This document shows, piece after piece, positions 16,345 to 64,000 of a stretch of DNA of 64,000 nucleotides (positions within the stretch are counted from its first letter, which is position 1; every line of letters begins with the position of its first letter). A program made the translations under genes and the position numbers. Location: the NCBI GenBank assembly GCA_049975265.1, contig JBNGDF010000005.1, positions 18,654-82,653 of the forward strand, read 5' to 3'. The notes beneath the pieces are model-generated. The model had not been told where the DNA came from. It searched no databases and saw only the letters and a list, made by a program, of their open reading frames with translations. The stretch comes from Fidelibacterota bacterium. Lineage in GTDB: Bacteria; Fidelibacterota; UBA2242.

Positions 16345-16731
16345 TTATTCCAGGTTTCGGGAGGCGATCAGGGGAATTCCCGAACCGGCAATGTTTTCCA
16401 TCAGAATATCTCCCATTTTGACTGGAGTCGCTACTTCTATCCGGTTGATTTCATTCATACAAGGAAATATCAGATGTTTGGGAATTGCTTCCCGGGTGCG
16501 CACCGGTAAACGTTTATAGTGGGAGTTAATAACCTTTACTGTGGAGGTTAGTATTCGGCGGGGGTCGGTCATTTCAGCGATCGCATAACTGATGCCCCGT
16601 TTGCAGGAATTACCCTCTACCCGAAATCCGTTTTCCGATTTTTCATCGCGGTAAACCGTCAGCCTGCAACCAATCGGGCAGGCGGTACAGATAAGCTCTT
16701 TAGATTGCATATGATGTTTTTTCTCCATCAA
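16345..16731 (-). CDS. DUF1667 CxxC protein, small subunit of the glycerol-3-phosphate dehydrogenase triad
   Basis: ICTACPIGC...GNSCKRG...PRRILTSTV...LPVRT. Confidence 0.85.
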   Translation of the reverse strand: MMEKKHHMQSKELICTACPIGCRLTVYRDEKSENGFRVEGNSCKRGISYAIAEMTDPRRILTSTVKVINSHYKRLPVRTREAIPKHLIFPCMNEINRIEVATPVKMGDILMENIAGSGIPLIASRNLE

Positions 16732-17977
16732 TGTGCAGGGAAATTGTTTTCGGTTGAATGGTTTTCATGATATTGGAATTAATCCGTACCCGTTCCATTT
16801 CACCAGGGGCAAGGTGGAGTCGTTTGACCTCTTTGATTATTTTTCCATCGGCTTGAATCCGGATTCTGGCATTGCGATACACCCTGGTGACCCGCAGCAT
16901 GATGTCCAGAATTCCGTTCAGATTATCAAGGCGGATATACTGAGGGATGACGTAGCTGACGCCCTCTTCCGGTACGACAGGGATAGAGGGGATGTTTTCA
17001 TTGATTTCTTCAAAAATATAATGTGCGGCGCCGGCACCGGCTTTCCGGGCTTCTTCAGTGACATAATCAGCCAAGTCGTGCACATGGGTGACATTTCCGC
17101 AGGCAAAGAATCCTTCGACGCTGGTTTCCATACTCTCGTTGACCAGCGGACCACCGGTTCTCGGATCAAGTTTGATATTAGCCTGGAGGGATAATTCATT
17201 TTCCGGGATCAGTCCCACGGAAAGCAAAAGAGTATCGCATTGGTACTCTTTTTCGCTGCCCGGGATCGGTTTTAGGTTCTGATCCACCTTGGAAATAGTG
17301 ACGCCTGTGACACGGTCTTTACCCCTGATATTGGTGACAGTATGGTTCAGTAGCAAGGGAATGTCGTAATCGTGGAGACACTGAACGATATTGCGGGTCA
17401 AGCCGCTGGAATAGGGCATCAGCTCCGCAACCGCCATAACTTTGGCGCCCTCCAGTGTAAGGCGCCGTGCCATAATTAAACCTATATCACCGGAACCGAG
17501 AATCACAATCCGCCGACCCACCATGTAACCTTCGATATTGATAAATCGTTGAGCAGTACCGGCAGTAAGGACACCCGCCGGTCGGGTTCCGGGAATCCGA
17601 ATGGCGCCCCGGGTCCGCTCACGGCAACCCATGGCTAAAATGATAGCATTGGCAGAGATGTGGATCAAGCCATCCTGTTTATTGATGGCGGTGATGGTTT
17701 TGATTTCTGAAATGTCCATTACCATCGTATCGGTTTTATATTCAATGTCCATTTCGAGAAGTTCATTGATAAACCGCTGGGCATATTCTGGTCCGGTCAG
17801 TTCTTCTTTAAAAATATGTAAGCCGAAGCCGTTATGGATACACTGCTGCAAAATGCCGCCCAGTTCAAGGTCTCTTTCGAGAACTAAAATATTTTGGACA
17901 CCCTTTTTCCGGGCTTCGATGGCAGCTGCCAAACCGGCGGGACCGCCTCCGATGACGACCAACTCGTAATTCAGCAT
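16700..17977 (-). CDS. NAD(P)/FAD-dependent pyridine nucleotide-disulphide oxidoreductase (partner subunit)
   Basis: IGGGPAGLAAA, GGILQQCIHNGFG, MGCRERTRG, GSGDIGLIMARR, CGNVTHVHDL. Confidence 0.88.
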   Translation of the reverse strand: MLNYELVVIGGGPAGLAAAIEARKKGVQNILVLERDLELGGILQQCIHNGFGLHIFKEELTGPEYAQRFINELLEMDIEYKTDTMVMDISEIKTITAINKQDGLIHISANAIILAMGCRERTRGAIRIPGTRPAGVLTAGTAQRFINIEGYMVGRRIVILGSGDIGLIMARRLTLEGAKVMAVAELMPYSSGLTRNIVQCLHDYDIPLLLNHTVTNIRGKDRVTGVTISKVDQNLKPIPGSEKEYQCDTLLLSVGLIPENELSLQANIKLDPRTGGPLVNESMETSVEGFFACGNVTHVHDLADYVTEEARKAGAGAAHYIFEEINENIPSIPVVPEEGVSYVIPQYIRLDNLNGILDIMLRVTRVYRNARIRIQADGKIIKEVKRLHLAPGEMERVRINSNIMKTIQPKTISLHIDGEKTSYAI

Positions 17978-19464
17978 TCTACTTCCTTCAATTGTTGGGC
18001 AGCGAGAACGGGTTTGGTTTCATTCATATCCGCAGATTTGGTTTTACCAGTGAGAATGGGTGAATTCAAATTGTCTTTTAGAATGCTGCCCATCTCCTGA
18101 TGCAGTTCACGCGCCAGTATCTCAATCACACGGGGCATACAGAAACCACCCTGACAGCGTCCTGTGCCGGGTCGGACTCGGCGTTTGACACCGTCAACTG
18201 TTGTGGCGCCGGCATTTCGGTGAATGGCATCTACAATTTCGCCTTCGGTAATATTTTCGCAGCGGCAAATGATTCTGGCAAACCGCGGCTCTCTTTTGAT
18301 CAAACTGGCTTTTTGATGATCGCTCAATTCGGCGAAGTGAATGATTTCGCGACGGGTGTCGCGAAAATCACGCTTTGGTTTCAGCGCCGGCAGTATTGAA
18401 TCGACAATGCCGACCACCTTTTCAGCAATTGCCGGCGCTGCCGTAAGTCCCGGTGATTTGATGCCGGCAACATTTATAAAACCCTTAACTGCCGGTGATT
18501 CTGCGATGATGAAGTCGCCGGTGTCGGGTTCGGCACGCAGTCCGGCGAAAATATTGATGGTCTGATGCAGTGGAATATTAATAAAACTTTGCCGAGCGGT
18601 CTGTTGGACAAATTCCAGCCCCTGTGAGGTCGTCTCGACGGCGTCATCGCGGGAAATCCGTTCGGAGTTTGGTCCAATCAGAACGTTGCCATGAACTGTG
18701 GGGGTAACCAGAACCCCTTTCCCGAGATCACTGGGTGGTTGAAAAACCACATGGCGCACCATTTTGCCGGCGGTTTTGTCCAGTACATAGTATTCCCCAC
18801 GGCGGGGCATGATTGTAAATTCCGGTGGCGCGATCAAATTGTTAATTTTATCGGCTTGCACACCGGCACAATTAATGATGACCCTGGAGCGGAATTGAAC
18901 AGAGCCGGTTGAAATATTGAAAATTCCATCTGCTTTGGAGATGGAGACAACCGGGCTGTTTAAATAGAGTTCCGCGCCATTATCGATTGCATTTTCTGCC
19001 AGAGCAATCGCCAGCTCCCATGGTCCTACGATTCCGGCGGTTTTGGCATACAGCGCACCGATAGCAGCGGGATTTATTTCCGGTTCGAGATTGCGGAGCT
19101 GGTCGCGGTCGATGATTTCCATCTGGCGGATTTTATTCCGGATGCCCCGTTCATAAAGCTGCTGAAGGGTTTTAAGATCGGTGTCGTTAAACGCCAGCAC
19201 CAGCGAACCAATTCGTTTGAAGGGTACTTGGAGACGTCTGCAAAGGGAATCGAACATGGGATTTCCCTTTGAATTTAGTTCAGCCATCAGGGTACCCGGT
19301 TTCGGATCGTAGCCGGCGTGGATAATGGCACTGTTGGCTTTTGTGGTGCCGTTTGAGACGTCGTTTTCTTTATCGATCAGAGCGATTTTCAATTGATAGC
19401 GGGTTAATTCACGGGCGATAGAGGTACCGCAGATTCCGGCTCCGATAATCAGAACGTCATACAT
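17971..19464 (-). CDS. FAD-dependent glycerol-3-phosphate dehydrogenase-like protein (GlpA/LhgO family) with C-terminal BFD-like [2Fe-2S] domain
   Basis: IIGAGICG, GTTKANSAIIHAG, GIKSPGLTAAP, CRCENITEGE...GRCQGGFC. The three-gene arrangement matches the Thermococcales/Clostridia G3P dehydrogenase. Confidence 0.8.
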   Translation of the reverse strand: MYDVLIIGAGICGTSIARELTRYQLKIALIDKENDVSNGTTKANSAIIHAGYDPKPGTLMAELNSKGNPMFDSLCRRLQVPFKRIGSLVLAFNDTDLKTLQQLYERGIRNKIRQMEIIDRDQLRNLEPEINPAAIGALYAKTAGIVGPWELAIALAENAIDNGAELYLNSPVVSISKADGIFNISTGSVQFRSRVIINCAGVQADKINNLIAPPEFTIMPRRGEYYVLDKTAGKMVRHVVFQPPSDLGKGVLVTPTVHGNVLIGPNSERISRDDAVETTSQGLEFVQQTARQSFINIPLHQTINIFAGLRAEPDTGDFIIAESPAVKGFINVAGIKSPGLTAAPAIAEKVVGIVDSILPALKPKRDFRDTRREIIHFAELSDHQKASLIKREPRFARIICRCENITEGEIVDAIHRNAGATTVDGVKRRVRPGTGRCQGGFCMPRVIEILARELHQEMGSILKDNLNSPILTGKTKSADMNETKPVLAAQQLKEVEC

Positions 19465-19490: not shown

Positions 19491-19551
19491 GAATAAATAT
19501 ACATTAATATTAATTCATTGATAATTTCAACTATCTGTCGCCAAAAGTCAA
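19491..19551 (-). promoter_or_regulatory. Promoter and 26-bp operator of the dehydrogenase triad
   Basis: Minus strand TTGACT (19551-19546), then 30 nt after TTGAC: GAATTAATATTAATGTATATTTATTC (19516-19491). Confidence 0.75.
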
Positions 19552-19665: not shown

Positions 19666-20616
19666 TTAAGTTAGATGAAGCAGCTCGTCAGCCCCCTGAT
19701 CATCAATAACCAGAGAGTTGATGATTCCTGCTCTCGCCGCAGCGGCAACGACTTGAGCCCGATCCCGTCCGCCGGTTACGGCAACCACTTCCGGAATCCT
19801 TTTTAACTGTTCCAAGCTGATGCCGATAATCCGGTTTGTATAAGTGGTTTCACATTCATTGCCATCTTGGTCCAGAAAATGACCACAGATTTCACCCACC
19901 ATGCCCCGGGATTTAAGGTTATTTAATTTGTGTTTTTCAGAAAATTCATTTGTGTAGAAGACCGAATTTACCGGATTACCAATTCCTACGAAAGCCAGGT
20001 TGGCATGATCCATCTGGTTTAGGACATATTTAATCTGCTCGTGTTCTACAAAAATTTGGTAGCTGCGGTGGTCGGGAGTGATTGCGGGGGCTTGCAGACG
20101 ATAATATTGTCCGCCCCAGCGTTTCGCCAGGCGCCGGGTAAGTTCGATAGCATCATTTTCCTGAATCTGGGTAGAAATATCACCGATGGCTTGAATAAAG
20201 ATATTGCTGTAAGTCGCTTGGGTCGGTTTCATCTCCTCCGTCACAGCATTCAGATAACGTCCCGCGGCGACACAGACAACTGAACCGGATTTGATTAGTT
20301 TGCTGAGAACAGGAGCCGCAAAATGCCCCATCGTGTAGCGATACTGTTCGCTGGTCTGACCGGGGATTGTTTTGATGACGACGCAGTGATGAAAATGGAA
20401 TTCTTCCATCAATTTCTTTTCAAGCACCTGATCACGGGGCGAAAAAGGCTTAACCTGGATTTGGACTATTCCCTTTTTACGGGCTTCCTGGAGCAGACGG
20501 GACACATTAGCCTGGGATAGTCCGGCTAGTTTAGCTACTTTAGCCTGCCCCAGACCTTCGATGTAGTAAAGCGAGGCAACAAGCAGTAAAATTTCATCTT
20601 TTGCTTTTGGTTTAAT
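19666..20616 (-). CDS. SorC/DeoR-family (LsrR/CggR/EryD-like) sugar-phosphate-binding repressor, copy A; probable ATT start
   Basis: The frame extends upstream of the track ORF to include the HTH (VASLYYIEGLGQAKVAKLAGLSQANVSRLLQEARKKGIVQI). Sugar-binding domain has AFVGIG, VGEICGHF, LVIDD. GGGAG lies 6 nt before ATT at 20616. Confidence 0.85.
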   Translation of the reverse strand: MKPKAKDEILLLVASLYYIEGLGQAKVAKLAGLSQANVSRLLQEARKKGIVQIQVKPFSPRDQVLEKKLMEEFHFHHCVVIKTIPGQTSEQYRYTMGHFAAPVLSKLIKSGSVVCVAAGRYLNAVTEEMKPTQATYSNIFIQAIGDISTQIQENDAIELTRRLAKRWGGQYYRLQAPAITPDHRSYQIFVEHEQIKYVLNQMDHANLAFVGIGNPVNSVFYTNEFSEKHKLNNLKSRGMVGEICGHFLDQDGNECETTYTNRIIGISLEQLKRIPEVVAVTGGRDRAQVVAAAARAGIINSLVIDDQGADELLHLT

Positions 20617-20852: not shown

Positions 20853-20913
20853 TTGACATTCCCTGAAAAATGCTTAAAATTAACTTGGCATTTTTATTAA
20901 TGGATATTTATTC
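20853..20913 (+). promoter_or_regulatory. Promoter and 26-bp operator of uptake module A
   Basis: TTGACA (20853)-N16-TAAAAT; GCATTTTTATTAATGGATATTTATTC at 20888-20913, 30 nt after TTGAC. Confidence 0.72.
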
Positions 20914-21033: not shown

Positions 21034-23751
21034 ATGAATAAATTTGGTGTGGTTGTAATAGTTGGACTGGTCTTATTGATTTGTATTAGTGCTTTGGCTG
21101 CACGACCGGAAAAATCATGGGGAAGATTGTTGATAAAAACACCGGTGATCCGATTGTCGGCGCTAATATCTATATTGAAGGTACCAGTATGGGGACGGCA
21201 TCGGATATCAATGGCGATTACTTTATTATCAACATTCCACCCGGAACCTACACACTGATCTGTTCTTATGTTGGATATGAACGCATCTCCGTAGTAAATA
21301 TTGAGGTCAACGTTGACCGGACTACAATTCAAAATTTTTCTATCGCTCCCCAAGCAATTGAGGGTGAGGAAGTAACGGTTATTGGGACCCGCAAGATTAT
21401 TGAAATGGACCGCACAAATACAGCGGCTTATGTAACATCAGAAGAAATTCAGACCATGCCGGTGCAGGAGCTGGGCGACCTTATTCAGCTGCAAACGGGT
21501 GTGGTGAAGGATGCCGGTGGTACTTTTCATATTCGTGGTGGTCGCGGTGGTGAAATCGCCTATCTGATTGACGGAGTTCCGGTGACGGATCAATATAACG
21601 GCGGAAGTTCCATTGCGATGGAAAACAGCTGGGTTCAGGAGCTGCAGGTCATCAGCGGTACGTTTAACGCCGAGTTACGGTCAGGCTCAATCGGGTGTCG
21701 TCAATATGATTACCAAGGAGGGTGCGAAAAAATTTGGCGGAAATGCCTCGCTCTCAATTGGCGATTATCTTTCAAGCCATTCAGATATTTTTATGAATAT
21801 CGGGGAGATAAATATAAATGAGAAGGACCTCAATCTGAACTTCAGAGGACCGATCTCCCTTATTCGGAATTTGTCTTTTTACACATCCCTGCGCTATTAT
21901 CAGACCGATGGCTGGTTATACGGACAGCGTCGGGTGCTTATCGATGATACCGTGCCGATCCAGCATTATGTCTATCAGGCTCAACGAAATCCCACTCAGG
22001 AGGAGTCACTTTATGGGTATAACATTCCGGACTCGCTGATGAATGGAGACGGCGCCTATATTCCCATGAATGGCAGAGAAAAAATTTCCGGTTACGGGAA
22101 GCTTTCGTACATGCTTACGCCGAAAATTAAGATCAACTATTCGCTATTTTACAATAAGACGGAATCCAGGTCCTACAGTGATTCCCGGCGCTACTCTCCT
22201 GACGGTGTACGTCCGTCTCATGACCGCAATTATAATCACATTCTCAGTCTGAATCACATCCTCTCAAATAAGACCTTTTATAATCTCAACCTATCCCATT
22301 ATGCCAAAAACACCTGGTCTTACCTTTTTGAAAATCCTCTGGATCCGCGTTACCAAGGCATTGCCTTTAGTGACCAGGGATTCATCTTTGGCGGCACTCA
22401 GAACGACCGGTATGATATTTTACGCTCGGCGACATCAGTTAAATTTGATCTGACCAGTCAGATCAACAAGTTCAATCAGGTTAAAATGGGGCTCGAGTAT
22501 AAGCAACACAAACTTGATTACAACTCTTCCAAAACGGTAGCATACGGTGTCAACTACCAGCCGCCCGATTCTCTGGCGGTGCCTGCGAGAAATACGGCAA
22601 ATAATAATCATTATCTGGTAAAGCCCTTAGAAGCATCAATATATATTCAGGACAAAATTGAATTCAGAGAGGTGATCATCAATGTCGGTTTACGTTACGA
22701 TTACTGGGACCCGGTAGCTCAGATCCCCGTGGATTTACGCGCCAGAACAAATATCTATGATGGTATTCGACTGGATTCGGAACTCAGGAAAGCCAAAAAA
22801 CAGATGCAACTGAGTCCCCGATTGTGTTTAGCATATCCTATTTCCGACCGGGGAGTATTTCACGTTTCCTACGGTCACTTTTTCCAGCTGCCGCGTTTCA
22901 ATGCAATTTACAATAATTACGAATATGAGATTGAACTGGGCGGGCTGCGTACAACAATGGGCAACGTGAATTTGAAACCGGAACAGACAGTAGCTTACGA
23001 GTTGGGACTTCAACAGCAACTTGCGGCGGACTACAGTATTGACATTACCGTTTATTATAAGGACATCCGTAATTTACTGAGTCAGGAAATCATCAGTACC
23101 TATGATGACAAGGTCTATGCCCGCTATATTAATCGTGATTACGGCAATGTAAAGGGTATCATCTTTTCGGTGAACAAAGCCTATTCGAATTATTTTTCCG
23201 GTGGGATTGATTACACCTATCAGGTGGCGATGGGGAATGCGTCTGATCCGAATGCTGTCTTTACAAGATATCAGACCGATCCACCGGCGGAGGACGAAAA
23301 GCAGGTGGTCCCTCTGGACTGGGATCAGCGGCATACCTTGAATGCGTCGGCGATTGTTGGGAATCCGTCCAACTGGACCTTTGCGGTAATCGGGCGGTTT
23401 GCCACAGGAATGCCTTACACGCCGACCAACCCCGGTAGTCAGTTGACGACCCAGTTTGAAAACAGTGCCCGCAGACCGGCGACGTATAACATTGACCTGA
23501 ATATCTATAAATCGGTGAAATTGCAGCGCTATAAGCTGAATCTCTTTTGCAAGATATTCAATTTGACCGACCGTTTAAATGAGATCAGAATCTATTCCAG
23601 TACCGGCAATGCCCGTCATCCCTACAGGACCATTCCCAATATGGAGGTGCTGCAAAACAATCCGAATTTCACGGTGGATGAGGTGGATTTGAATCCTACC
23701 TACTATTCCAGTCCCCGACGGGTTTTATTCGGTATAAGTGTCGATTTCTAA
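21034..23751 (+). pseudogene. TonB-dependent receptor, copy A, with two frameshifts
   Basis: The signal peptide from ATG 21034 is out of frame with (G)TTGKIMGKIVD (1-nt loss at ~21100). There is an extra T at ~21675 (paralog reads NAEYGQAQ). Plug FHIRGGRGGEIAYLIDG, barrel and terminal F are present; colinear with 47590-50301. Confidence 0.82.
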
Positions 23752-30678: not shown

Positions 30679-30828
30679 GATAGCTTGGGAAAATTTTTTG
30701 TCCCCCTGAACAGTCCATTGATTTGACGGAAGTATGTTGTGATTTTTCTACTGAACATTGAAGAAAGGAGTTCTTCGAAAAATTGATGGGGTAAGCACTC
30801 TGTAAATCCGTTGAAAAAGGAGCCAATA

Positions 30829-47212: not shown

Positions 47213-47392
47213 AGTGCACCCGATTTCAAATTGATTATAACACCAATAATCAGTTATTACTGCCTTTAAAATAATATAGTTGGAATATTTATACAAATAA
47301 AAAGAGGAAATTAGCAAAAGTGAAAAATCAGGCAGATTTTTCAATCAAGGGTAGAATAATAGGTAGCTTTCAATGAATTGGTAAAAAAACTG

Positions 47393-47454
47393 TTGACTTT
47401 TAGGATAAAAGATTGCATACTACACATAGAATTAATATTTATGAATAATTATTC
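47393..47454 (+). promoter_or_regulatory. Promoter and 26-bp operator of uptake module B
   Basis: TTGACT (47393)-N17-CATACT; GAATTAATATTTATGAATAATTATTC at 47429-47454. Confidence 0.78.
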
Positions 47455-53300: not shown

Positions 53301-53494
53301 GTATGATTCGTATCTATACGGTTTCAGGAAAACTGGTCAAGACTCTCAGGCATTCGGCGCAGATGTCCATGGGTGCCGAATCATGGGACTTGGTGTCGGA
53401 AGACGGGCTGACGGTGGCATACGGCATATATGTCTATCATGTGGAGGCTCCCGGAATCGGTTCGAAAGTGGGCAAATTTGCTTTAATAAAGTAA
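50356..53494 (+). pseudogene. Large secreted TBDR-associated protein, copy B, with two in-frame stops and a frameshift
   Basis: From ATG 50356: TAG at 50422, TAA at 51364 and one extra A at ~51776. Removing the A gives GYFSLPKNGTRKF, the same length as GYFKVMQAETRKF in copy A. Colinear with 23767-26871. Confidence 0.82.
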
Positions 53495-54594: not shown

Positions 54595-54628
54595 ATAATT
54601 TTTTTAAGAAAAAACCTTGGAGGTATTT

Positions 54629-57208
54629 ATGAAAAGAAGAAATGTTACCATCGCGAACCTCTGCGTGACGTTTCTGGTGCTGGCTTTTTTTTCCGGAACA
54701 GTCACGGCCCAATGGGGCAAGGCGTTGCATTATAAATGGTGGGAGCATGACCGGCTGCTGGTTCTCCAGTCGGTGGACTATTGGCCGGAGCATGTGTATC
54801 AGGGAACGGTAGAGTGTTTCTTCAAACTGGATTCGACGTTGCGTTCGGATAATCATGGCAATACCTATACCTACATCATTTCGAAAAATCAGGGCGGTGC
54901 CGCCAAGGGCGATTTCGGGATTGCCTGGCAGACAGGGGCTGGCGATCTACACTCCTGGATTCAGGATGTAAGTAAAACCGCCTCGGTGCATACATACGAA
55001 ATTAAGGTCTGGCAACCCCGCTGGTACCATGTCGCAGTTACGTGGGATGTCAACGATTCAATGCGGATTTGGGTAGACGGTGTCCAGATGGCGGATCGAA
55101 CACCGTCAGGGCTGATTAATGATACCTATCCCCCGCTGGATGTGGAAAGTGGCAACATGCCGATTGTGATTGGAAACCAGACGACGGAACAGATGTCCAC
55201 CACCTGGGACGGCTTTCGCGGTACGATTGACGAATTCCGGATCTCCAATGTGGTTCGCTATACCGAGGATTTTGAAGTTCCCACCGAGCCTTTCATAGCG
55301 GATGCCAATACCATGGCGCTCTGGCATTTTGATGAAGGTGAGGGTTACGTCGCCCACGATGCAGCCTTCGGTCTTTTCGACGGGAAATTGGGGAATGAGA
55401 GCAATAGTTATGTTGATGCACCCCAATGGGTTGATATTGTTTATTCAGAAAAAGTGATCATTAATGAGGTTTTGCTGGATGAGCGCAATAATGATGTCAA
55501 CGGCGACGGTGTCAGTGACCTGCGGGATGAATTTGTCGAGCTGACCAACATTGCCGATAAGGCGGTGGATCTCTCCGGCTGGCAGCTGGGTGATGACGAG
55601 GCGTTGAATTTCACCTTCCCGGATGGATACATTCTTCCGCCACACAAATTTGTGACGGTGGTCGGTGGCGGAGATGTCAGCAGCCTGCCCGGATATGACG
55701 CCGATCCGCTGAAAACGGCGGTCTTTGCCGCCGATGGTACCATTGGTGACGGTCTGGATGCAGCGGGAGAATATATTATTCTGAAGTCACGTCTCGGCTA
55801 TTCTGACACCTATCTGGCGGTGGGCAGTGCCGCCTCGGCGGGTGCACCAAATTCTGCGGTGGTTGAAGGAATGGACTGGGAGTTTGCTAATGCCACGGCT
55901 GTCGCCGCCGGTCAGGGAGCTTCGATAACCCGCAGCCAGGATGCCAATACTGAGGTGGAGGATCCTTTTGCGGTGCACAGCGAAGTTGGCACCGGGAACT
56001 TTTCGGCGGGCACGACGATCGACGGTGCCGATTATTTGTCCTATGTGGTAACGATGAGCATGGACCCGGAGGGTGTGGGAACCCTTGAGATTGATACGGT
56101 CATGGCGCGTTACGAATACAACCAGGTTGTCACATTTAATACTCTGCCGATTTATGGCGAAGGTCACGCCTTCGGCTATTGGACCAATAGTGATGAAGGA
56201 TTTAAAAGCAAATTAAATCCTCTCACCATGTCCATCAATAAACCGCAGCACGTGGTGGCTCACTTTGTACCGCGAATTCAGATCACCCCCCGAATTGTCA
56301 TCAATGAGGTCAATTTTGATGTCTATAAAGATGCCAATGGCGATGGAATTATAGATTCCAACCAGGACGAGTTTATAGAGATTGCCAATATATCCAACGA
56401 CGATGTGGATATGACCGGATGGCAGGTTGGGGATGACGAAGAATTATCCTTTACTTTCCCCGATGGCTATATCATGGCACCGGGACAGATTGTTGTTATT
56501 TTTTCCGGTGGCAATATCACCGGAGTGCCCGGTTTTAATGTCAACCCGCTTAAAACCAGAGTATTTGTATCCGATGTTATTGATCGTCTTGGAAATGGTT
56601 TGAATAATACCGATGAAGCCATATTGCTGGTTTCCGCCGACGGGACGGAGGATATGTACATCCAGAACCGGGATCGCCTGTATAAGGGTGATCCCCATAT
56701 TAAATCGGCTGAAGGTATTGATTTCGAGATTCGCTTTGACGTCCGGGATTCCACCTGGAACAACAACTCGATTACGCTGTTTCCGGATGGGGACCTGAGC
56801 GAAGATGATCCCTATGTGCAGCATAAAACGGTGGCTCTAGATGACTCCTGTTTTTCACCCGGTCAGACGGTTAATTTCGAAAACTCGATTGTTGTCAGCG
56901 CGATTGATGGAACCGAATCCGGTTTACCGAAATCCTTTGCTCTGCATTCGAATTATCCCAATCCGTTTAATCCGGAAACCACCCTGCGATTTGATGTACC
57001 GGGTCGTACGAAAGTAACGGTAACGGTTTACGACATACTGGGTAAAAAGGTCGCCGTGCTGACTGACAAAGAATATGCTGCCGGGTACTATCAGATTCGC
57101 TGGGACGGACGGAACCGGAGCGGTCAGGCGGTTCCCGCCGGTGTCTATTTTTATCGTCTTCAGGCGGATAATTTCATGCAGACCAATAAGATGATTCTGC
57201 TGAAGTAG
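54629..57208 (+). CDS. Secreted LamG-like + 2 lamin-tail-domain protein with CTD, copy B
   Basis: Colinear with 28027-30624; WYHVAVTWD, IDEFRIS, LWHFDEG, two INEV...DEF.E units, SNYPNPFNP...KMILLK; GGAGG RBS. Confidence 0.8.
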   Translation: MKRRNVTIANLCVTFLVLAFFSGTVTAQWGKALHYKWWEHDRLLVLQSVDYWPEHVYQGTVECFFKLDSTLRSDNHGNTYTYIISKNQGGAAKGDFGIAWQTGAGDLHSWIQDVSKTASVHTYEIKVWQPRWYHVAVTWDVNDSMRIWVDGVQMADRTPSGLINDTYPPLDVESGNMPIVIGNQTTEQMSTTWDGFRGTIDEFRISNVVRYTEDFEVPTEPFIADANTMALWHFDEGEGYVAHDAAFGLFDGKLGNESNSYVDAPQWVDIVYSEKVIINEVLLDERNNDVNGDGVSDLRDEFVELTNIADKAVDLSGWQLGDDEALNFTFPDGYILPPHKFVTVVGGGDVSSLPGYDADPLKTAVFAADGTIGDGLDAAGEYIILKSRLGYSDTYLAVGSAASAGAPNSAVVEGMDWEFANATAVAAGQGASITRSQDANTEVEDPFAVHSEVGTGNFSAGTTIDGADYLSYVVTMSMDPEGVGTLEIDTVMARYEYNQVVTFNTLPIYGEGHAFGYWTNSDEGFKSKLNPLTMSINKPQHVVAHFVPRIQITPRIVINEVNFDVYKDANGDGIIDSNQDEFIEIANISNDDVDMTGWQVGDDEELSFTFPDGYIMAPGQIVVIFSGGNITGVPGFNVNPLKTRVFVSDVIDRLGNGLNNTDEAILLVSADGTEDMYIQNRDRLYKGDPHIKSAEGIDFEIRFDVRDSTWNNNSITLFPDGDLSEDDPYVQHKTVALDDSCFSPGQTVNFENSIVVSAIDGTESGLPKSFALHSNYPNPFNPETTLRFDVPGRTKVTVTVYDILGKKVAVLTDKEYAAGYYQIRWDGRNRSGQAVPAGVYFYRLQADNFMQTNKMILLK

Positions 57209-57330: not shown

Positions 57331-59301
57331 ATGAAAAAGCTTGTTTTAGTAATATTGTTTATTTTTCTCACAGACGCCGATGGCAAGGTGCTGTTTCGCT
57401 ACAATTCCGACCTTACAGCCGATTCTCCGTTATAATCGTCGTTTGTGGGTAATCATATTACGGTTCAGGAATATCTGCCTGCCAGCGAAATACCCGCCAG
57501 AGGAGCCGGGGGCTGGGGCTTTCGGACGGTCCACACAACTCTGTTTAATCACGATTCCGCCTATATTCGGTGTCCCGATACCCTGCGCACATCTTTCTAC
57601 AACGATCACGATTTTTCGGCGGAGGTCTGGTTCAAGCCCGATTGCCGGAATGGGAACCTGATGACACTGCTGGATGATTACGGTGATGTGATTTTTACTC
57701 TGACCCTGAAAGACTGTATATTACATTTCCAGCGCATTCTGCAATACAAGCTCTTCGAAATACAGTCATCCGACACCTGTACCCAAAACGAGTGGAATTA
57801 TGTGCAGTGGATCAGCGGAACCGTCACTGACACGATTCGGCAGCGTCTCTATCTGAATCGCCAGCTGGTTGCCGAACAGCAGTCAGCGATTGTTCACTAC
57901 CCCATCGGCTTTGAGACCCTGTCGGGACATCTGAAAATCGGTTTCGATGCCGCGCTGGAAAGCAGCTCCTATCGCGGTGAAATATATGCAGCAGAGCTGA
58001 AAACCGAGGAATTCGGATCGGTATACAACAACGCCCATTATCCACTGGATGGCAGCGGCTACTTTGGTCTGCCCTATTACCGTTATTATCGCTCCGGTTC
58101 CGACATTTATCAAAAGCGGATCCGCGCCAGTAAGGTTCCGATCGCAGCGGCTGTTTTCGTGCCTTATTCAAACGATGGCTATATTCCACAGGGATTGACA
58201 AATACTTATGAGGACGATCAATTCACCGGTGACAGCGACATGGTGTACATCTCGCTTTACCATCGTGATATCGATGGAACGACCGGCAATCAACGCTCGA
58301 TTATTGTCGAGTTGGATTCCGGCAAAGACTATCAGGTACGGCGCTGTTTTCGGATGAACGGTGAACTGGCGACGGCGCACATGACCGCCATGGCTTACCG
58401 GGGCGGTAATATTCTGCTGACATGTGGCGGAAAAGGTTTCCGGCTTGAAATCCCGGAATACAGTGGTGCCGGCAGGGAGAAATATCAGACCCTTGGTTAT
58501 GTCTGGTCCCAGAGTATGTATTCAGCCTCCGCCACCTATTTTTCCGATACACTCTGGTGCTGTACCAAATTTGCCGATGAAGCCGGAGAAACGGCTTATC
58601 TGGCGGGTTACCCGATGAATCTGTCGGGAGTTGTTGATTTAGCGGCAAAACCGACATACTATATGCTGCCGATGTATGTTCAGGGCGCCGCCTGGACGAA
58701 ATTTCAGGGACAGGATTACCTCTTCGCCTCCTGCAGCTTCGGTGACAGGGATTCGAAATTATACCGCTACTCCAGGAGTAAGCTTTCCCGCTGGGAACTG
58801 GCGGAACCGGATACGATTTTTTACCTTCCGGCGGGAACGGAAGATGTAACCTTTAACCGAGCCGGCAATTTAATGGTCTCTTCCGAATCGTCGGCGCTCT
58901 ATTATTCCAGCCGGACGTCCAATCCCTGGTCCCAATTCTTTCCCTTCATTTTCGAAATTTCCAGGGAGGTACTATTTGCCGATCGGGTCAATGGAGGTAC
59001 GGGAACCCAATCGCAGGGTCTCAGTATACTGCCGGGGGAGTATGAGTTGGTGGCTTATCCCAATCCGTTTAATAACCGACTGAGTATTCACTACAAGGTT
59101 GGAAATGCTGTCACCAGCCTGCTCAATATTTACGATCTTCGCGGGCGGATTATTGATTCCGTTTCCCATGAAAGTGTCGATTCCAGATCGTATATACATT
59201 ATACCTGGAATCCTGAAAAACTCGCCTCCGGCGTTTATCTTATTCAATTGCTTGTGGATGATATCCCCACCCGTTCACGGAAGGTGGTCCTACTGAAATG
59301 A
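57331..59301 (+). pseudogene. Secreted LamG-like/propeller protein with CTD, copy B; in-frame TAA at 57433
   Basis: ATG 57331 MKKLVLVILFIFLTDADG (signal peptide) is in frame with ORF 57445 across one TAA. YIPQGLTN, VRRCFR, GTEDVTF, SESSA and QFFPFI are shared with 33641-35605. Confidence 0.72.
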
Positions 59302-60887
59302 AAGGGCGAATACCATATTTTTTTCGTTTCGCACCGATAATTTTTCTTTTAATTGCCAGCTCCTGCAGCCGGCGGCAGTATCATGATGATACACCCGTCC
59401 TGGCGAAGGTGGGCGATGTAGTCATTACCGAGAAAAGTTTTATTGAAAGCTACAGCTTCGGTCCCTCTTTTTTAAAAAGCGTTGACGGTGCCAAAGAGAG
59501 CTATTTGCAGGCAATGATCAACGAAGCGGTTTTAGCCCAGCTGCCCCAGGTGCAGGAGAAAAAATCCGGTGAATATGTTCAAAAGTCCATGCGCCTGTTG
59601 AAACAGGAGCTGCTGGTGGAAAAGATGTTCAATGTCGAAGTCGGCGGAAAGGTCAGTGTCAGCGAAGAGGAGATTCGGGAGGCGATTGCCAGATCCGCCA
59701 TCGAAAACAGAGTGAAATACCTGTATACCGACGATTTAAACGAAGCCCGGCGTTTTAAAGCGGAACTGGATAGCGGTGCTGATTTTGATAGTCTTCTTGA
59801 GAACAAACTGGGTCACCTGGGCATCGCCGTTGAAAATGGTGAAACCGATTTTATCGGTTACGGCGAGCTGCAGGAACCGTTTAATGAAACGATTTATTGT
59901 CTTAAACCTTCCGAGATTTCACCGATTATTTCCCATGGAAAAGGCTATTTTATTATTAAAAAAGTCGCTTCGCGGCGCAGAATTCTGGCGGAGTCCGATT
60001 TCGCCCAATACCGGCATCGGTATGAGCAGGTTATCCGTTATAAAAAAGACCGCCGCCAGACCGGCAGGTTTCTGAAGGAGTTTATGGACCCGAAGGAAGT
60101 TGTTGTCGATGGTAAAATTTTTAATGTCCTGGCTCGCACGTTCCATTCACTTATTCATACAGCTATCCAGGACTCCGGCTTTCAGCAGACGCCCTCCCTT
60201 CCGGAACCGCTCTCCTTTCGTCAGATTTCCGAGCAGTTAGCGGATTATTATGACGAACCAGCGGTACGCTTTAAGGACGGGCACTGGACGGTTCGCGAGT
60301 TGCTGTACCATCTCTCCTATCGCCCGCTGGATTTACGGGCAGCCGAATTTACCGAGCTGGCGGGAAAATTACGGACCATCATAGGTCGAACCATCCGGGA
60401 TGTTTGTCTGGAGGAAGAGGCGTTAAAGCGCAACTATGATCGCGACCCGGAGATTCGGTATCAGCTGGATCGCTGGGAACGTAAACATACGACCCAGGTT
60501 TTCATAGATTCGGTCAAAAACATCTGCCAACCGGAGCTGTCAAATGTAGAATCGCTTTATGAAAAAACGGCGTATGCGCAGAATGTCGAATTTGACCAGG
60601 TAGTGTCCCATTTAACCGGTTTGCTGACGATGAAAATGACTCAGGACAGATTGATGGAACTAGCCGAAAGCAGTGAAATAGAGGTGATTCTGCATCCGGA
60701 ACATCTGAACGCTGTCCGTGTGGATGAACCCCGGGCAGGTCGGCTGCCGGATGTAAAATTATACAAACTGGGATTGCCCTATCTGCGGGAGGCGTTTCCC
60801 ACGCCCGACCCGTTATGGGGTGCGGAAGAGATTTTGGAACGGCTGACCCGCTCATCCGATGAAGAACTGATTAATAAAAAACAGTAA
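59298..60887 (+). CDS. PrsA/SurA-like peptidyl-prolyl isomerase (parvulin) lipoprotein
   Basis: Lipobox ASSC; VLAKVGDVVIT, VSEEEIRE, LDSGADFDSL, LKPSEISPII..KGYFIIK. Confidence 0.7.
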   Translation: MKGRIPYFFRFAPIIFLLIASSCSRRQYHDDTPVLAKVGDVVITEKSFIESYSFGPSFLKSVDGAKESYLQAMINEAVLAQLPQVQEKKSGEYVQKSMRLLKQELLVEKMFNVEVGGKVSVSEEEIREAIARSAIENRVKYLYTDDLNEARRFKAELDSGADFDSLLENKLGHLGIAVENGETDFIGYGELQEPFNETIYCLKPSEISPIISHGKGYFIIKKVASRRRILAESDFAQYRHRYEQVIRYKKDRRQTGRFLKEFMDPKEVVVDGKIFNVLARTFHSLIHTAIQDSGFQQTPSLPEPLSFRQISEQLADYYDEPAVRFKDGHWTVRELLYHLSYRPLDLRAAEFTELAGKLRTIIGRTIRDVCLEEEALKRNYDRDPEIRYQLDRWERKHTTQVFIDSVKNICQPELSNVESLYEKTAYAQNVEFDQVVSHLTGLLTMKMTQDRLMELAESSEIEVILHPEHLNAVRVDEPRAGRLPDVKLYKLGLPYLREAFPTPDPLWGAEEILERLTRSSDEELINKKQ

Positions 60888-60897
60888 GGATAAAGCA

Positions 60898-61692
60898 ATG
60901 ATTGTAAAAAAAGGAGCATTCCTTTTCTGGATTACAGCGGTGGTTTTCCTGCAGTCCACCGTTTTTGCCTGGAATAAGGTCAATCATGCCAATATTACCC
61001 GGGCTGCCTTTGAGCAATTGACGAGAAAAGAACAGCGGATGTTCGGTAGTGCGGCGGATTCGATGATTGAACATTACTCGTTAAATCCGGATTACCACCG
61101 CGCCGCCGTCCGGCAGAAGGATCAGGCGCGGATCGATTTTTACGACCCCTATGTTAATTTGCCGCTATTACAAAACATCAAACAGTGGCATAAAAATGAT
61201 GATGAAAATAGCGAGGTATGTTTTTATATCACCACGAAACTGATGCATCATGCTGTGCTGAATCTTCAGAAGGGTGGGACCCTCGAAGCCGCAAAGTATC
61301 TGGGATCATTGGCTCATTTTATCGAAGATAATGCCTGTCCGGTTCATGTTCTGCCGGATAAAACCATTGCCCAGCTGCTCATTTCACCCGATTATCCGCA
61401 GCCGATGGATATTCATCGGGCTGTTGATAGAGCTGATTTTACAGTTGATATTTCCGGTTACAAACCCCAGTTGTTGGGAGAAAATCTGGTGGAAGCCTCC
61501 GAAGCGATCTATTTTCGATTTAAGGAGAATCGAATCAACGCCCGGGCGCAGATTGTACCGCTGGTTCAGTCCATATTTGCAAAGGATGAAGCGGGAGTGG
61601 CGAAGTATGGCGCTGCAGCGGCGGAGCCGGCAGCCCGCCTTTTTGCCGATATTCTCCATACTGTTTGTACCCTGGCAGAGGCAGGTCGCTGA
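60898..61692 (+). CDS. Zinc-dependent phospholipase C / P1-nuclease-fold protein
   Basis: Signal peptide ending VFA, mature N-terminal W..V.H, PD, WH, YLGSLAHFIEDNACPVH and IHRAVD metal-ligand pattern. Confidence 0.72.
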   Translation: MIVKKGAFLFWITAVVFLQSTVFAWNKVNHANITRAAFEQLTRKEQRMFGSAADSMIEHYSLNPDYHRAAVRQKDQARIDFYDPYVNLPLLQNIKQWHKNDDENSEVCFYITTKLMHHAVLNLQKGGTLEAAKYLGSLAHFIEDNACPVHVLPDKTIAQLLISPDYPQPMDIHRAVDRADFTVDISGYKPQLLGENLVEASEAIYFRFKENRINARAQIVPLVQSIFAKDEAGVAKYGAAAAEPAARLFADILHTVCTLAEAGR

Positions 61693-61780
61693 TCGAATTA
61701 CCCGGTGATATTGGATGAGGGACATGGATTTGAGAAATCCTTTTTAAATCAACGCATGTTTGTGGAGTGGTAAGAGTATT

Positions 61781-62860
61781 ATGAAAAGTAGCCAATTTTC
61801 CAGACGGGATTTTTTAAAATTAACCGGTACCTCTGTGATTGGTGCAGCATTATCCGGTAACGTTATTACAAAAATATTTGCTCGTCCAGGACGAATCGCG
61901 TTTGAACCAGTGCGCTTTGCGGTAATTGCCGATATTCATCTTGATACCCAAAGTCAAAATGAGATGAAGATGAGTGCTGCAAGTGTCGCTTGTCTGCGTC
62001 AGACGGTAGCGGCTCTGAATACCGAAGAAAATCTGAGATTTGTTATCGTTCTGGGTGATTTATTGCTGGATGGCGAATTGGAAAACGCCCGTGTGGTCCG
62101 AAGCTACCTGCAACAGTTGAAGGTGCCGGCGTATGTCATTTGCGGCAATCATGACTTTATGCCGCCTGATCCGAAAAGGCGCCGGACAGGATTCACCTAT
62201 TTAAAAATTGATGAATTTGTTCAATTTTTCGGTGATTATGGTTATGGAAAAGCCGGGAAGCGGTATTATGCAAAACAGATCTTGCCGGGCTTACACCTGA
62301 TCGGTCTCGACGCCTGTCTGCCCAACGATCCGGTCTGCTGGGGCGGGATTCTGCCACAGGAACAGATGGGTTGGCTGGCGGATCAACTGAACAAAAACGG
62401 GGATTCCGTCAATCTCGTTTTCATGCACCACAATTTTATCCGCTGGTCGCAGGATGAGCAACCGGGACAGCCGATGGCCTGGTTTTGTATTGATAATGAT
62501 GAGGCGGTCCGGAAACTACTTGCCCGTAGTTCTCAGGCGGCGCCGGTGGTCATTTCCGGTCATCGCCACATCGGATTGCGATATAAAGAAGAAAGCGGCG
62601 TTAACTATTTTGTGACGCCGTCTATTAATTCCTACCCCATGCGCTATTCGGTCTTCACACTGAGCAGGTTCGCGATTTCCTGGAAAACTCCGATGGTTGC
62701 CGTGCCGGAAACCGTCCATCTGGACGCACGGGCTAATCTGCTGAAGGCAACCTGGTGGCGGGGGGCGCGATGCAGGGAGCGCAGTCCGGCGAATGATGCT
62801 GCCGTCCGGGATTTTTATGAAGAGTCCGATAAAATCTTCGGTCGGAAAGAGTTTAGTTAA
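61781..62860 (+). CDS. Tat-exported calcineurin-like metallophosphoesterase
   Basis: SRRDFLK twin-arginine signal; ADIH, GDLL, GNHD, MHH, SGHRH. Confidence 0.88.
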   Translation: MKSSQFSRRDFLKLTGTSVIGAALSGNVITKIFARPGRIAFEPVRFAVIADIHLDTQSQNEMKMSAASVACLRQTVAALNTEENLRFVIVLGDLLLDGELENARVVRSYLQQLKVPAYVICGNHDFMPPDPKRRRTGFTYLKIDEFVQFFGDYGYGKAGKRYYAKQILPGLHLIGLDACLPNDPVCWGGILPQEQMGWLADQLNKNGDSVNLVFMHHNFIRWSQDEQPGQPMAWFCIDNDEAVRKLLARSSQAAPVVISGHRHIGLRYKEESGVNYFVTPSINSYPMRYSVFTLSRFAISWKTPMVAVPETVHLDARANLLKATWWRGARCRERSPANDAAVRDFYEESDKIFGRKEFS

Positions 62861-62896
62861 CTGAAGTCTTTTTAAATTGTAAAGGAAGGTAAGTTG

Positions 62897-64000
62897 GTGA
62901 AAATCAGATATCTATTGTTTACAGGTACCATTCTGTTATTTAGCGTGTTCGTACAGATAGTAACCCGGGCGGCAACCGCCACACGATCACCTTTTGTAAT
63001 CGTATTAATGCCGGATACGCAATACTACTCCCTGCGGGATCTGGCGACTTATAATGCCCAGGCTGCATGGATTGCGTATCATAAAAATTTCCGCAACATT
63101 AAGTTCGTTATCCATCTCGGTGATATTACTCATAACAACACTCTCACGGAGTGGCAGGCTGCCGATGCCGCGCATACCATTTTGGATAATGCCAATGTGC
63201 CCTACAGTGTGATACCCGGTAATCATGACAATCCGGACGGCGGCAGGAAGCGTGACACCCGGCGATATAATCAATATTTTGGTCCGCAGAGATTCGATGA
63301 GCGTGCCTGGTACGGTGGGCATTTTCACAACACTAACGACAATAACTACTGTTTTTTCGAAGTTCACGATCTGAAATTTATGATCGTGAATCTGGAATTT
63401 GCGCCAAGCAAGGAAGCGCTCTGCTGGGCGGACTCGCTGTTGCTGCACTATCCGGATCGGCGGGTGATTGTAGCGACGCACTGCTACCAGGGGCATGATG
63501 CCGTTCATCAGTGCAATTGCGGCACCGGCTATGATATTGCCGGCAGTGGTGGGAATACCACCTGGAACGAGTTTGTCAAACGCCACAGCAATATTTTTAT
63601 GGTAGTCTCCGGACATGTGGGCGATTCGGAGCTGATGGTTCGGACCGGCAATCTCGGCAATACGGTCTACGAGATTTTAACCGATTATCAGTTTGAACAG
63701 CGGAATGGCGTGAACCACGGAAACGGCTGGCTGCGCACCCTGGAGTTTTTCCCCGATGAGAACCGGATTGATGTCCGGGTCCTGTCGGTACTGGACGACG
63801 TGTATGAATTTAACCGGAGTGATTATCCGTCGAATCCCAACGATCCCGCCCATAATTATTCACTTGATTACGACATGAGTGGTCCGGTAGAGGGGAAATA
63901 TCTCCGGCTTGATAACGCCTTTAATGATATGACCGTCCAGGCTTCTGATATCATCAATCAGTGTGAACCTGCCGTTTCAATGGCGCCCGATGGGGATTTT
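62897..64000 (+). CDS. Secreted calcineurin-like metallophosphoesterase, runs off the window end
   Basis: Not in the track; translated by hand: signal peptide, MPDTQYY, HLGDI, PGNHD, VATHCY, VSGHV, GNGWLR. Open to 64000. Confidence 0.85.
   Translation, partial: MKIRYLLFTGTILLFSVFVQIVTRAATATRSPFVIVLMPDTQYYSLRDLATYNAQAAWIAYHKNFRNIKFVIHLGDITHNNTLTEWQAADAAHTILDNANVPYSVIPGNHDNPDGGRKRDTRRYNQYFGPQRFDERAWYGGHFHNTNDNNYCFFEVHDLKFMIVNLEFAPSKEALCWADSLLLHYPDRRVIVATHCYQGHDAVHQCNCGTGYDIAGSGGNTTWNEFVKRHSNIFMVVSGHVGDSELMVRTGNLGNTVYEILTDYQFEQRNGVNHGNGWLRTLEFFPDENRIDVRVLSVLDDVYEFNRSDYPSNPNDPAHNYSLDYDMSGPVEGKYLRLDNAFNDMTVQASDIINQCEPAVSMAPDGDF

Follow-up and report, generated by a model that had tools for sequence, protein, structure and literature searches.

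A SorC-encoding gene cluster of a Fidelibacterota bacterium as a candidate utilisation locus for glycerophosphodiesters

The PusCD system of Flavobacterium johnsoniae imports phosphatidylinositol head groups as a phosphorus source, and pusCD-like pairs adjoin glpQ homologues in gut Bacteroidota (bioRxiv 10.64898/2026.09.03.749221). The glp route is specific for sn-glycerol-3-phosphate (sn-G3P); wall teichoic acid (WTA) is described as poly-sn-G3P, lipoteichoic acid (LTA) as poly-sn-glycerol-1-phosphate (sn-G1P) and the head group of phosphatidylglycerol (PG) as sn-G1P, and intact LTA is not cut by GlpQ (PMC7086022). ShfP, a calcineurin-like protein with lamin-tail domains (LTDs) and Ig domains, has been implicated in LTA breakdown to G1P, and its relatives are fused to LTD, LamG and FN3 domains, as in the locus described here (PMC13440414, PMC11488536). 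Bacterial AraM, a G1P dehydrogenase homologue, has been treated as biosynthetic or as unclear in role (PMC13400652, PMC6431249, PMC7852524, PMC10221552), and passages of PMC5059525 held nothing on bacterial AraM function. Here, we analysed a stretch of 64,000 nucleotides from a Fidelibacterota bacterium (GCA_049975265.1, contig JBNGDF010000005.1; hereafter the window), which contains a 49-kb gene cluster (the locus) for the apparent use of phosphorylated polyols. The host genome has 2.86 Mb and is 95% complete, and the window lies on its contig C5. Close homologues are labelled Candidatus Marinimicrobia or Neomarinimicrobiota, that is, Marinisomatota (Fidelibacterota), and contigs from a sediment and a marine-sediment metagenome align with the locus, mostly at 90-99% identity. 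No RNA data set was listed among those with this stretch, which argues neither for nor against its expression.

The locus is probably a feeding system for glycerophosphodiesters of dead bacteria, repressed by SorC and resembling a polysaccharide utilisation locus (PUL); we hold this reading with fair rather than full confidence. LTA and WTA, PG and its deacylated forms are the likely sources. The distinctive trait is likely the pairing of an sn-G3P dehydrogenase with what appears to be an sn-G1P dehydrogenase. Together with two types of glycerophosphodiester phosphodiesterase (GDPD) and no kinase, this pairing is what one would expect for substrates from which both enantiomers are released in phosphorylated form. 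A previous interpretation (the sequence-only reading) had likewise proposed a PUL-like system for phosphodiesters rather than for glycans, which is the best reading of the present data.

Pfam and NCBIfam scans of 46 open reading frames (ORFs) of the window recovered every gene listed in the sequence-only reading (TonB-dependent receptor (TBDR) modules, GDPDs, calcineurin-like enzymes, SASA protein, dehydrogenase triad, AraM, HAD-IIA phosphatase and both SorC proteins). That inventory had overlooked an RpiB/DerI-like isomerase gene at 45709-46182.

The cytoplasmic core and its distribution

The genes proposed to release, import and oxidise glycerol phosphates are the following:

16345..16731, minus strand: small Cys-rich triad subunit, DUF1667 (PF07892, E 4e-31)
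16700..17977, minus strand: pyridine nucleotide-disulphide oxidoreductase, triad subunit (PF07992)
17971..19464, minus strand: FAD-dependent glycerol-3-phosphate dehydrogenase/oxidase-like subunit with a BFD [2Fe-2S] domain (NF033460)
30811..31605, plus strand: GDPD1, canonical GlpQ/UgpQ-like, with lipobox (PF03009, E 3e-44)
41141..42025, plus strand: GDPD2, divergent GDPD lipoprotein with a variant third acidic residue
42042..43415, plus strand: AraM-like, long-form sn-glycerol-1-phosphate dehydrogenase homologue (PDB 9h4x)
43436..44287, plus strand: HAD-IIA (AraL/NagD-type) phosphatase (Pfam/NCBIfam)
44321..45709, plus strand: organophosphate:Pi antiporter of an AraM-linked clade (NCBIfam and tree)
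45709..46182, plus strand: RpiB-family isomerase, DerI-like, in addition to the housekeeping RpiB

The FAD subunit scored 346 bits on NF033460 (cut-off 460), and its best PDB match was L-alpha-glycerophosphate oxidase 4x9m (E 5e-53). A GlpD above its cut-off replaces the triad in a relative from another family (G083), which supports a G3P-oxidising triad. The AraM homologue has the fold and motifs of the G1P dehydrogenase family, with G1P dehydrogenases, 9h4x first, as its best PDB matches; residues D117, D140, D187, R260, H267, H271 and H287, which we take to be metal and substrate ligands, were invariant in 80/80 homologues. GDPD1 (PDB matches 2pz0, E 1e-33, and 5t91, E 2e-31) keeps the catalytic His pair and the Glu-x-Asp...Glu metal site. 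GDPD2 keeps the His and the Glu-x-Asp, but Asp replaces the canonical third acidic Glu in 19/19 rows, so that it has a variant of the GlpQ/UgpQ-type site; it is a candidate sn-1-specific enzyme. The antiporter, previously called GlpT, is an organophosphate:Pi antiporter without being a GlpT ortholog: it reached 358 of 633 bits on the GlpT model TIGR00712, its top models were UhpC and PgtP, and it sits in a 32-row AraM-linked clade (support 100/100), apart from the GlpT-like paralogues present in several loci. The isomerase belongs to the RpiB family (160.8 bits on the D-erythrulose-4-phosphate isomerase model NF051858, below the cut-off of 240, and 165 on RpiB) and lacks histidines that are ring-handling residues in RpiB, in an alignment from which one row (L132), taken on the wrong strand, was left out. 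No kinase gene was found within the locus by Pfam or NCBIfam, as previously claimed, while a glpK lies elsewhere in the genome (contig C3).

The core consists of a divergent GDPD, the AraM-like dehydrogenase, a phosphatase of the HAD type, an antiporter of the GlpT family and SorC, in many cases joined by GlpD. It recurs in Planctomycetota and Verrucomicrobiota and, within five SusCD loci, in Bacteroidota. AraM-like loci numbered at least 567 across phyla; our figures on them refer to the best 80, which include kin, and hence non-independent loci, and a few Marinisomatota. AraM was accompanied by the antiporter in 32 of these loci, HAD in 26, SorC in 17, GDPD in 16, GlpD/GlpA in 14, RpiB in 10 and SusD in 5, and at least two module genes were present in 35/80. 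One locus (L101) reads glpABC-araM-MFS-HAD-glpT. In the Bacteroidota SusCD loci (L062, L091, L102, L106 and L109), AraM stands with GDPDs or metallophosphoesterases. Core carriers among gut Bacteroidota include Alistipes, Parabacteroides and Odoribacter loci. Propeller domains of the phage receptor-binding type bind wall teichoic acid, and one such propeller occurs in L102 (PF21311, E 4e-6; phrog_287, E 1e-8), with a weak match in L091.

The reverse search started from the GDPD2 clade with a query built from AraM neighbours, a choice that takes weight from the test, and its figures refer to the best 80 of 154 metagenome loci, a few of them near-duplicates. AraM was present at 41 of the 80, nearly always as the next gene, 20-170 nt downstream. 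The proportion was 35/58 among loci with at least 400 nt of downstream sequence and 17/23 among those with at least 3 kb on both sides. In a control set of 30 canonical GDPD loci, AraM lay within 1.5 kb of none. Kinases were absent from 78/80 AraM loci and from all 80 GDPD2 loci. These dedicated subfamilies of dehydrogenase, GDPD and antiporter suggest a dedicated substrate.

A biosynthetic AraM, acting with geranylgeranylglyceryl phosphate synthase (GGGPS), was also considered and rejected on distribution. The host encodes a GGGPS of the PcrB family (G000:C11:60509-61267), as do 54/61 relatives, compared to AraM in 10/401 genomes, and GGGPS adjoins none of the best 80 AraM loci, which disfavours this role. 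GGGPS and G1P dehydrogenase in one genome have been described as a rare pairing in FCB bacteria (PMC6431249).

We compared the locus with four relatives (G001, G002, G003 and G028) and with two genomes of another Marinisomatota family (G083 and G116). The locus is syntenic in these genomes, three of which belong to the same genus as the host. G001 has an intact module 1, with triad, GDPD1, SASA protein, propeller and purple-acid-phosphatase-like (PAP) enzyme; both G001 and G002 have the core and module 2, and G003 and G028 have part of these. The order in G083/G116 is glpD-LTD-GDPD2-araM-HAD-antiporter-rpiB-sorC-receptor-partner-porV-LamG/LTD-propeller-two PAPs-PPIase-GDPD1-second antiporter, with GDSL esterases in place of the SASA protein in G083. 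The genes are thus kept together in two families, and the core is found in several phyla with the same operator, so that the co-occurrence test proposed with the sequence-only reading gives a positive answer. Within the phylum the distribution is patchy (AraM-like genes in 10/401 genomes, GDPD2 in 7/301 genomes). In the G001 locus (L018:3119-10247, L017:16618-17709), inserted genes encode a ribulokinase, an ABC importer that has two ATPases, a third GDPD and a UroD-like protein; a UroD-like gene is also present at the end of another locus (L035).

Tentatively, the GDPD2-AraM-antiporter-HAD-SorC core may represent an undescribed catabolic pathway for sn-G1P, with the first sn-1-specific glycerophosphodiesterase and a G1P antiporter, and most long-form bacterial G1P dehydrogenases may be catabolic; we would believe this almost as readily as doubt it. 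If true, sediment Marinisomatota, gut Bacteroidota, Planctomycetota and Verrucomicrobiota would eat LTA and PG head groups, and bacterial kin of the archaeal glycerol-1-phosphate enzyme would gain a feeding role. Long-form bacterial G1P dehydrogenases would then be no sign of archaeal-type lipid synthesis, which bears on the 'lipid divide' literature that reads these genes as such (PMC6431249, PMC13400652), and this locus would be the fullest, polymer-foraging version. Teichoic acids and PG are large carbon and phosphorus pools of bacterial necromass. The glp route covers sn-G3P only, and no account of sn-1 consumption by other bacteria was found in the literature searched. The locus supplies candidate enzymes for every step, the Bacteroidota carriers of the core are good test systems, and an sn-1-specific phosphodiesterase, if confirmed, would be a reagent for teichoic acid analysis.

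Operators and SorC proteins

Five promoters of the locus have a TTGAC -35 box followed, 34-35 nt on, by a 27-nt imperfect inverted repeat, GAATWAATAT-N6-ATATTTATTC. The regulatory features are:

19491..19517, minus strand: operator 1, preceded by the TTGAC box at 19551
20887..20913, plus strand: operator 2, module 1 promoter (pattern and matrix scans)
37447..37473, plus strand: operator 3 (pattern and matrix scans)
41048..41074, plus strand: operator 4, core operon promoter (pattern and matrix scans)
47428..47454, plus strand: operator 5, module 2 promoter (pattern and matrix scans)
47283..47295, minus strand: operator half-site before SorC2 (pattern scan)
19666..20616, minus strand: SorC-family repressor 1 (PF04198), likely ATT start
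46265..47212, minus strand: SorC-family repressor 2 (PF04198), likely ATT start

The pattern gave 9 strand-hits in 2.86 Mb, 7 of them inside the locus. As the pattern was built from the same sites and is circular, leave-one-out matrix scans were added: in 4/5 scans nothing outside the locus reached the score of the left-out site. The fifth scan was uninformative because its register was shifted by one base; two of the other scans did recover its site. The motif also precedes the matching genes in all six relatives compared (G001, G002, G003, G028, G083 and G116) and occurs in planctomycete and verrucomicrobial AraM loci (L039, L072 and L078). The five promoters sharing one operator, noted previously, thus hold genome-wide and in relatives, and indicate computationally that the locus is co-regulated by its own regulator, as a PUL is.

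Both SorC proteins have an N-terminal HTH and a sugar-binding domain (PF04198), with a full-length match to SorC 2w48 (E 1e-31), and are the putative ligands of the 27-nt operators; the half-site ahead of SorC2 likely serves autoregulation. Neither gene has an ATG, GTG or TTG before the conserved N-terminus. The starts look like ATT (ATA in one relative), preceded by a Shine-Dalgarno-like run, and a stop lies just upstream of the start in three relatives' copies (L017, L026 and L126), indicating conservation of this unusual start within the genus. A possible effect is to limit the amount of repressor.

The outer arm

Two uptake modules lie 26.6 kb apart. They are paralogues with 70-80% nucleotide identity and share the layout SorC, receptor, partner of ~1035 aa, PorV-family barrel, LamG-LTD protein and then propeller protein. 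These modules and the other surface proteins, several with domains of the type IX secretion system (T9SS), are:

21034..23751, plus strand: TBDR1, not of SusC type, frameshifts near 21095 and 21675
23767..26871, plus strand: receptor partner 1, 1034 aa, no Pfam family
26900..27967, plus strand: PorV/PorQ-family barrel 1 (NF033709, 210 bits, cut-off 90)
28027..30624, plus strand: protein with LamG, two lamin-tail domains and a T9SS C-terminal domain (Pfam)
33641..35605, plus strand: propeller protein 1, secreted, five-bladed beta-propeller with T9SS domain (model pLDDT 84)
37610..40912, plus strand: multi-LTD/Big_5/T9SS surface protein, in-frame stop at 37889
47590..50301, plus strand: TBDR2, intact
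50356..53494, plus strand: receptor partner 2, interrupted by stops (50422, 51364) and a frameshift (near 51778)
53521..54594, plus strand: PorV/PorQ-family barrel 2 (NCBIfam)
54617..57208, plus strand: LamG, LTD and T9SS protein 2 (Pfam)
57331..59301, plus strand: propeller protein 2, paralogous to 33641-35605 and interrupted by a stop at 57433
59298..60887, plus strand: PrsA/SurA-like peptidyl-prolyl isomerase (PPIase) lipoprotein, conserved in the locus

The receptors scored 67.5 and 74.3 bits on the SusC model TIGR04056 (cut-off 368; TBDR1 in two pieces) and are not of SusC type, and the 1034-aa partner had no SusD match at E 0.05. Partner homologues are found in 31/31 related genomes searched, with many copies each, and the Atlas clusters that match the partner are all unnamed; the TBDR, the ~1035-aa partner and the PorV-family barrel form a multi-copy cassette in the same 31 genomes. 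This indicates that the cassette is generic and that the downstream genes give specificity. The partner may be the SusD analogue of this lineage. The LamG/lamin-tail/T9SS protein at 28027..30624 is likely a binding protein by its domains. A SprA gene is present in the genome and speaks for the proposed reading.

The LamG plus five-bladed propeller proteins form a rare secreted family (43 homologues) with conserved Asp, Glu, His and Arg, possibly a new family of hydrolases or binding proteins. In structure comparison, the model of propeller 1 matched glutaminyl cyclase (Z 19.7), GH32/GH43 (16-17) and the receptor-binding protein of phage phi11 (15.5), and Foldseek returned generic propellers only. 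The family had no Atlas match and no Pfam or PHROG family; a weak match was seen to a propeller of the G083 locus (probability 71%). Pfam recognised no glycoside hydrolase catalytic domain and no lyase in the locus, so the earlier claim that no glycoside hydrolase is recognisable stands, with the propellers as possible cryptic hydrolases.

Besides the two GDPDs, the locus encodes the following esterases and phosphoesterases:

31625..33622, plus strand: SASA (SGNH) acetylesterase-family protein (PF03629)
35612..37329, plus strand: PAP-like calcineurin phosphoesterase, out of frame after a 7-nt deletion near 36650
60898..61692, plus strand: Zn-dependent phospholipase C (PLC)/P1 nuclease fold protein, 264 aa (model pLDDT 96)
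61760..62860, plus strand: calcineurin-like metallophosphoesterase, twin-arginine signal (Pfam)
62894..64000, plus strand: secreted calcineurin-like phosphoesterase with T9SS tail and ShfP/YvnB-like motifs, open at the window end

The Zn-PLC-fold protein announced by the sequence-only reading had only weak Pfam matches (E 1e-3 and 2e-3) and no match in a sequence search of the PDB, but was borne out by the predicted model and fold search. The model shows the all-helical Zn-PLC/P1 fold with an N-terminal Trp and His/Asp zinc ligands, and H6, D41, H116, D120 and H126 are conserved. Three PLCs scored Z 17.9 (rmsd 3.3 over 201 residues), 16.2 and 15.7, S1/P1 nucleases 14.4-13.6 and the next unrelated row 4.6; the lead of the PLCs over the nucleases is 1-4 Z units, and sequence identities are 11-19%. 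The last phosphoesterase gene (62894) continues ~1.2 kb beyond the window end. Its motifs D41, D77 and NHD110-112 have a spacing similar to D927, D963 and NHD997-999 of ShfP, while its last motif is GHVG compared to the ShfP-type HxH; no Bacillus protein is named in the best 120 of its 329 matches.

Eight in-frame stops or frameshifts interrupt genes of the window: two frameshifts in TBDR1, the 7-nt deletion in the PAP-like gene, one stop in the large LTD gene, two stops and a frameshift in partner 2 and one stop in propeller 2. A ninth break lies in the tail of the last gene (62894), past the window end. The breaks are confined to genes for outer-membrane or secreted proteins, while the triad, the GDPDs, AraM, HAD, the antiporter, RpiB and both SorC genes are whole. 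The G001 and G002 copies of the broken genes are intact where covered (the partner 2 breaks were compared with these two copies only, four runs having left 50300-52000 uncovered), and sediment metagenome contigs (runs X1 and X2) read through intact at three break sites. By one pipeline, break density was 6 per 11,505 aligned residues in the locus vs. 7 per 88,677 elsewhere, with some start-site artefacts on both sides. Amino-acid changes in the broken genes were not in excess over G002, and a long-standing decay was rejected on this ground. The breaks represent recent decay or consensus errors, recent loss being likelier.

Glycogen synthase and GH57 branching enzyme genes (window 12925-16118, minus strand) adjoin the locus on the left; they are not part of it because they have no operator and no counterpart in the loci of the relatives. 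OprB-like and phosphate-selective porin-like ORFs, partial matches and possibly broken, lie at 2585-4381 (plus strand), ahead of a patatin gene. A separate locus (G000:C12:54510-66813) carries, by sequence, zinc alcohol dehydrogenase-like, kinase-like, phosphoesterase-like and TonB receptor genes, a second organophosphate antiporter and a phytase-like ORF.

Proposed pathway, other substrates and known systems

In the proposed pathway, the T9SS-exported LTD, LamG and propeller proteins would bind the substrate, and the calcineurin-like enzymes, the SGNH esterase and the PLC-fold enzyme, to judge by their domains, would cut and deacylate it. The architecture of the TBDR-partner-PorV cassettes suggests that they would take in the fragments. 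Lipoprotein GDPD1 would release sn-G3P, as its GlpQ homology predicts, and the divergent GDPD2, as its AraM linkage suggests, sn-G1P. The antiporter, by its family, would import the phosphorylated monomer; as the monomer would enter already phosphorylated, a kinase would be unnecessary. By homology, the FAD triad and the AraM homologue would oxidise sn-G3P and sn-G1P respectively to dihydroxyacetone phosphate (DHAP). The HAD enzyme might be an overflow valve or supply glycerol to the distant GlpK, and a phosphorylated intermediate would free SorC from the five operators.

Several observations weigh against this reading. The long-form AraM homologue is only distantly related to 9h4x (E 1.5e-35), and its score lies far below the cut-off for archaeal G1P dehydrogenases (PRK00843, 171.5 of 413 bits). 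No module gene was found at 32/80 AraM loci (15 belong to one planctomycete clade, and some contigs are short). The control set of 30 canonical GDPD loci is weak because it was drawn from a phylum where AraM is rare. Phospholipase C acting on PG also yields G1P, so that a teichoic acid and a phospholipid source are indistinguishable here. The propellers fit glycoside-hydrolase folds as well as any other fold, and the similarity to GH32/GH43 makes the statement that no glycosidase is present insecure; no profile match was obtained between the propellers and the PF21311 protein. Finally, the RpiB/DerI-like isomerase has no place in glycerol catabolism, the ribulokinase and ABC importer of the G001 locus suggest other polyols, and two actinomycete loci (L097 and L104) join AraM-like, HAD and RpiB genes with three FGGY kinases. 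Other polyol phosphates may consequently be co-substrates or the true substrates.

A core acting on different polyol phosphates (those of erythritol, threitol, ribitol or arabitol, with unusual teichoic acids, capsules or head groups as their source) is an unlikely but serious alternative. The AraM homologue would oxidise polyol phosphates and the DerI-like RpiB would route the products to the pentose phosphate pathway. The near-equal scores of the extra RpiB on the two models (161 vs. 165 bits), RpiB in 10/80 AraM loci, the G001 genes, an RbtT/DalT polyol transporter in L062 and the FGGY kinases all speak for it, and erythritol operons are also marked by SorC repressors and RpiB. However, RpiB is absent from 70/80 AraM loci, and the recurring partners are GDPDs and G3P dehydrogenases, not polyol dehydrogenases. 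Tetritol routes need an EryH-like step, which was not evident: the genome has one triose-phosphate isomerase (TIM) and a TIM lay near 1/80 loci.

A phosphorus-scavenging or phospholipid head-group system of the Pus type, in which the substrates are ordinary sn-3 glycerophosphodiesters and AraM is incidental or makes G1P, is distinctly improbable. The many phosphoesterases, the PLC fold and the SGNH esterases would suit it, as would the coupling of TonB-dependent transporters (TBDTs) with PLC and calcineurin-like enzymes in PusCD loci (bioRxiv 10.64898/2026.09.03.749221), and the host GGGPS could consume G1P. It does not account for control by SorC sugar-phosphate sensors or for carbon-oxidising dehydrogenases in the locus, and AraM is tied to its own GDPD and antiporter clades and unlinked from GGGPS.

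We consider it very improbable that the locus degrades archaeal polar lipids, with AraM burning the G1P backbone. G1P is the archaeal backbone, close relatives occur in sediment metagenomes and a reverse use of GGGPS has been proposed for FCB bacteria (PMC6431249). Archaeal head groups had been listed as possible substrates by the sequence-only reading, and are poorly supported: no ether-cleaving enzyme was recognisable in the locus, GGGPS stood beside none of the 80 AraM loci, and gut Bacteroidota commonly carry the core, in a habitat in which polymers of Gram-positive cells are probably the more abundant source. Moreover, the archaeal lipid backbone is not releasable by phosphoesterases alone. 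A role of the outer arm in the uptake of extracellular nucleic acids or nucleotides as food, with ribose-5-phosphate passed to RpiB, is scarcely credible: the PLC-fold protein also fits S1/P1 nucleases (Z 13.6-14.4) and LTDs have been predicted to bind DNA or similar polymers (PMC11488536), but PLCs outscore nucleases, the core chemistry is that of glycerol phosphate, and neither phosphorylases or hydrolases for nucleosides nor nucleoside transporters were found in the locus by Pfam and NCBIfam.

Glycerophosphodiester feeding remains our preferred reading, and the literature searched, subscription papers and supplements aside, described neither this locus nor a module of its kind that catabolises G1P. 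The previous statement that no characterised locus with this architecture was known holds for the exact architecture, but the class is known, as PusCD organophosphate systems have been characterised. The main text of the PusCD preprint makes no mention of 'teichoic', 'glycerol-1-phosphate' or 'GlpT' (bioRxiv 10.64898/2026.09.03.749221).

PusCD of F. johnsoniae is similar in its TonB-dependent transporter loci with PLC and calcineurin-like enzymes instead of glycosidases, directed at phospholipid head groups, and the locus likewise clusters a TBDT and its partner with phosphoesterases and few or no carbohydrate-active enzymes. PusCD differs in taking phosphorus from inositol lipids and in having SusC/SusD-like pairs (pus1 and pus2) and extracytoplasmic function (ECF) regulators; pus3 and pus4 lack the canonical pair, as described in the preprint (bioRxiv 10.64898/2026.09.03.749221). 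The locus has no PusC/PusD (SusCD-like) pair, and has instead a non-SusC receptor, the 1034-aa partner, a PorV-family barrel, SorC, and dehydrogenases of the G3P and G1P types in the cytoplasm. In E. coli and B. subtilis, the glp regulon shares the sequence of steps in which a GDPD at the surface or in the periplasm (GlpQ) frees glycerol phosphate, which enters through an antiporter (GlpT) and is converted to DHAP by an FAD enzyme (GlpD/GlpABC). By contrast, the locus adds the divergent GDPD-antiporter-dehydrogenase set and an outer-membrane foraging arm, and glpK is outside the regulon.

GlpQ, PhoD and ShfP (YvnB; together with PhoA) of B. subtilis resemble the outer arm as GDPD or calcineurin-like teichoicases with FN3, LTD, Ig or LamG domains. 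They act on polymers of the own cell and G1P is dephosphorylated outside, whereas the locus is proposed to act on foreign polymers and to oxidise G1P inside. In B. subtilis AraM (EgsA)-AraL, a G1P dehydrogenase homologue with the conserved motifs also adjoins a HAD-IIA phosphatase; the literature assigns that AraM to the synthesis of an ether lipid whose function is unknown (PMC13400652), while the AraM homologue of the locus is ~60 residues longer and set among import and catabolism genes. Finally, the canonical PUL (Sus) has the same combination of co-regulated binding proteins, hydrolases, TonB-dependent import, inner-membrane transport and catabolism, compared to which the locus lacks a SusC/SusD pair, and neither a glycoside hydrolase nor a lyase was recognised in it. 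The locus appears to work like a PUL and like PusCD without being a canonical PUL, and is a new form of organophosphate utilisation locus, real and conserved.

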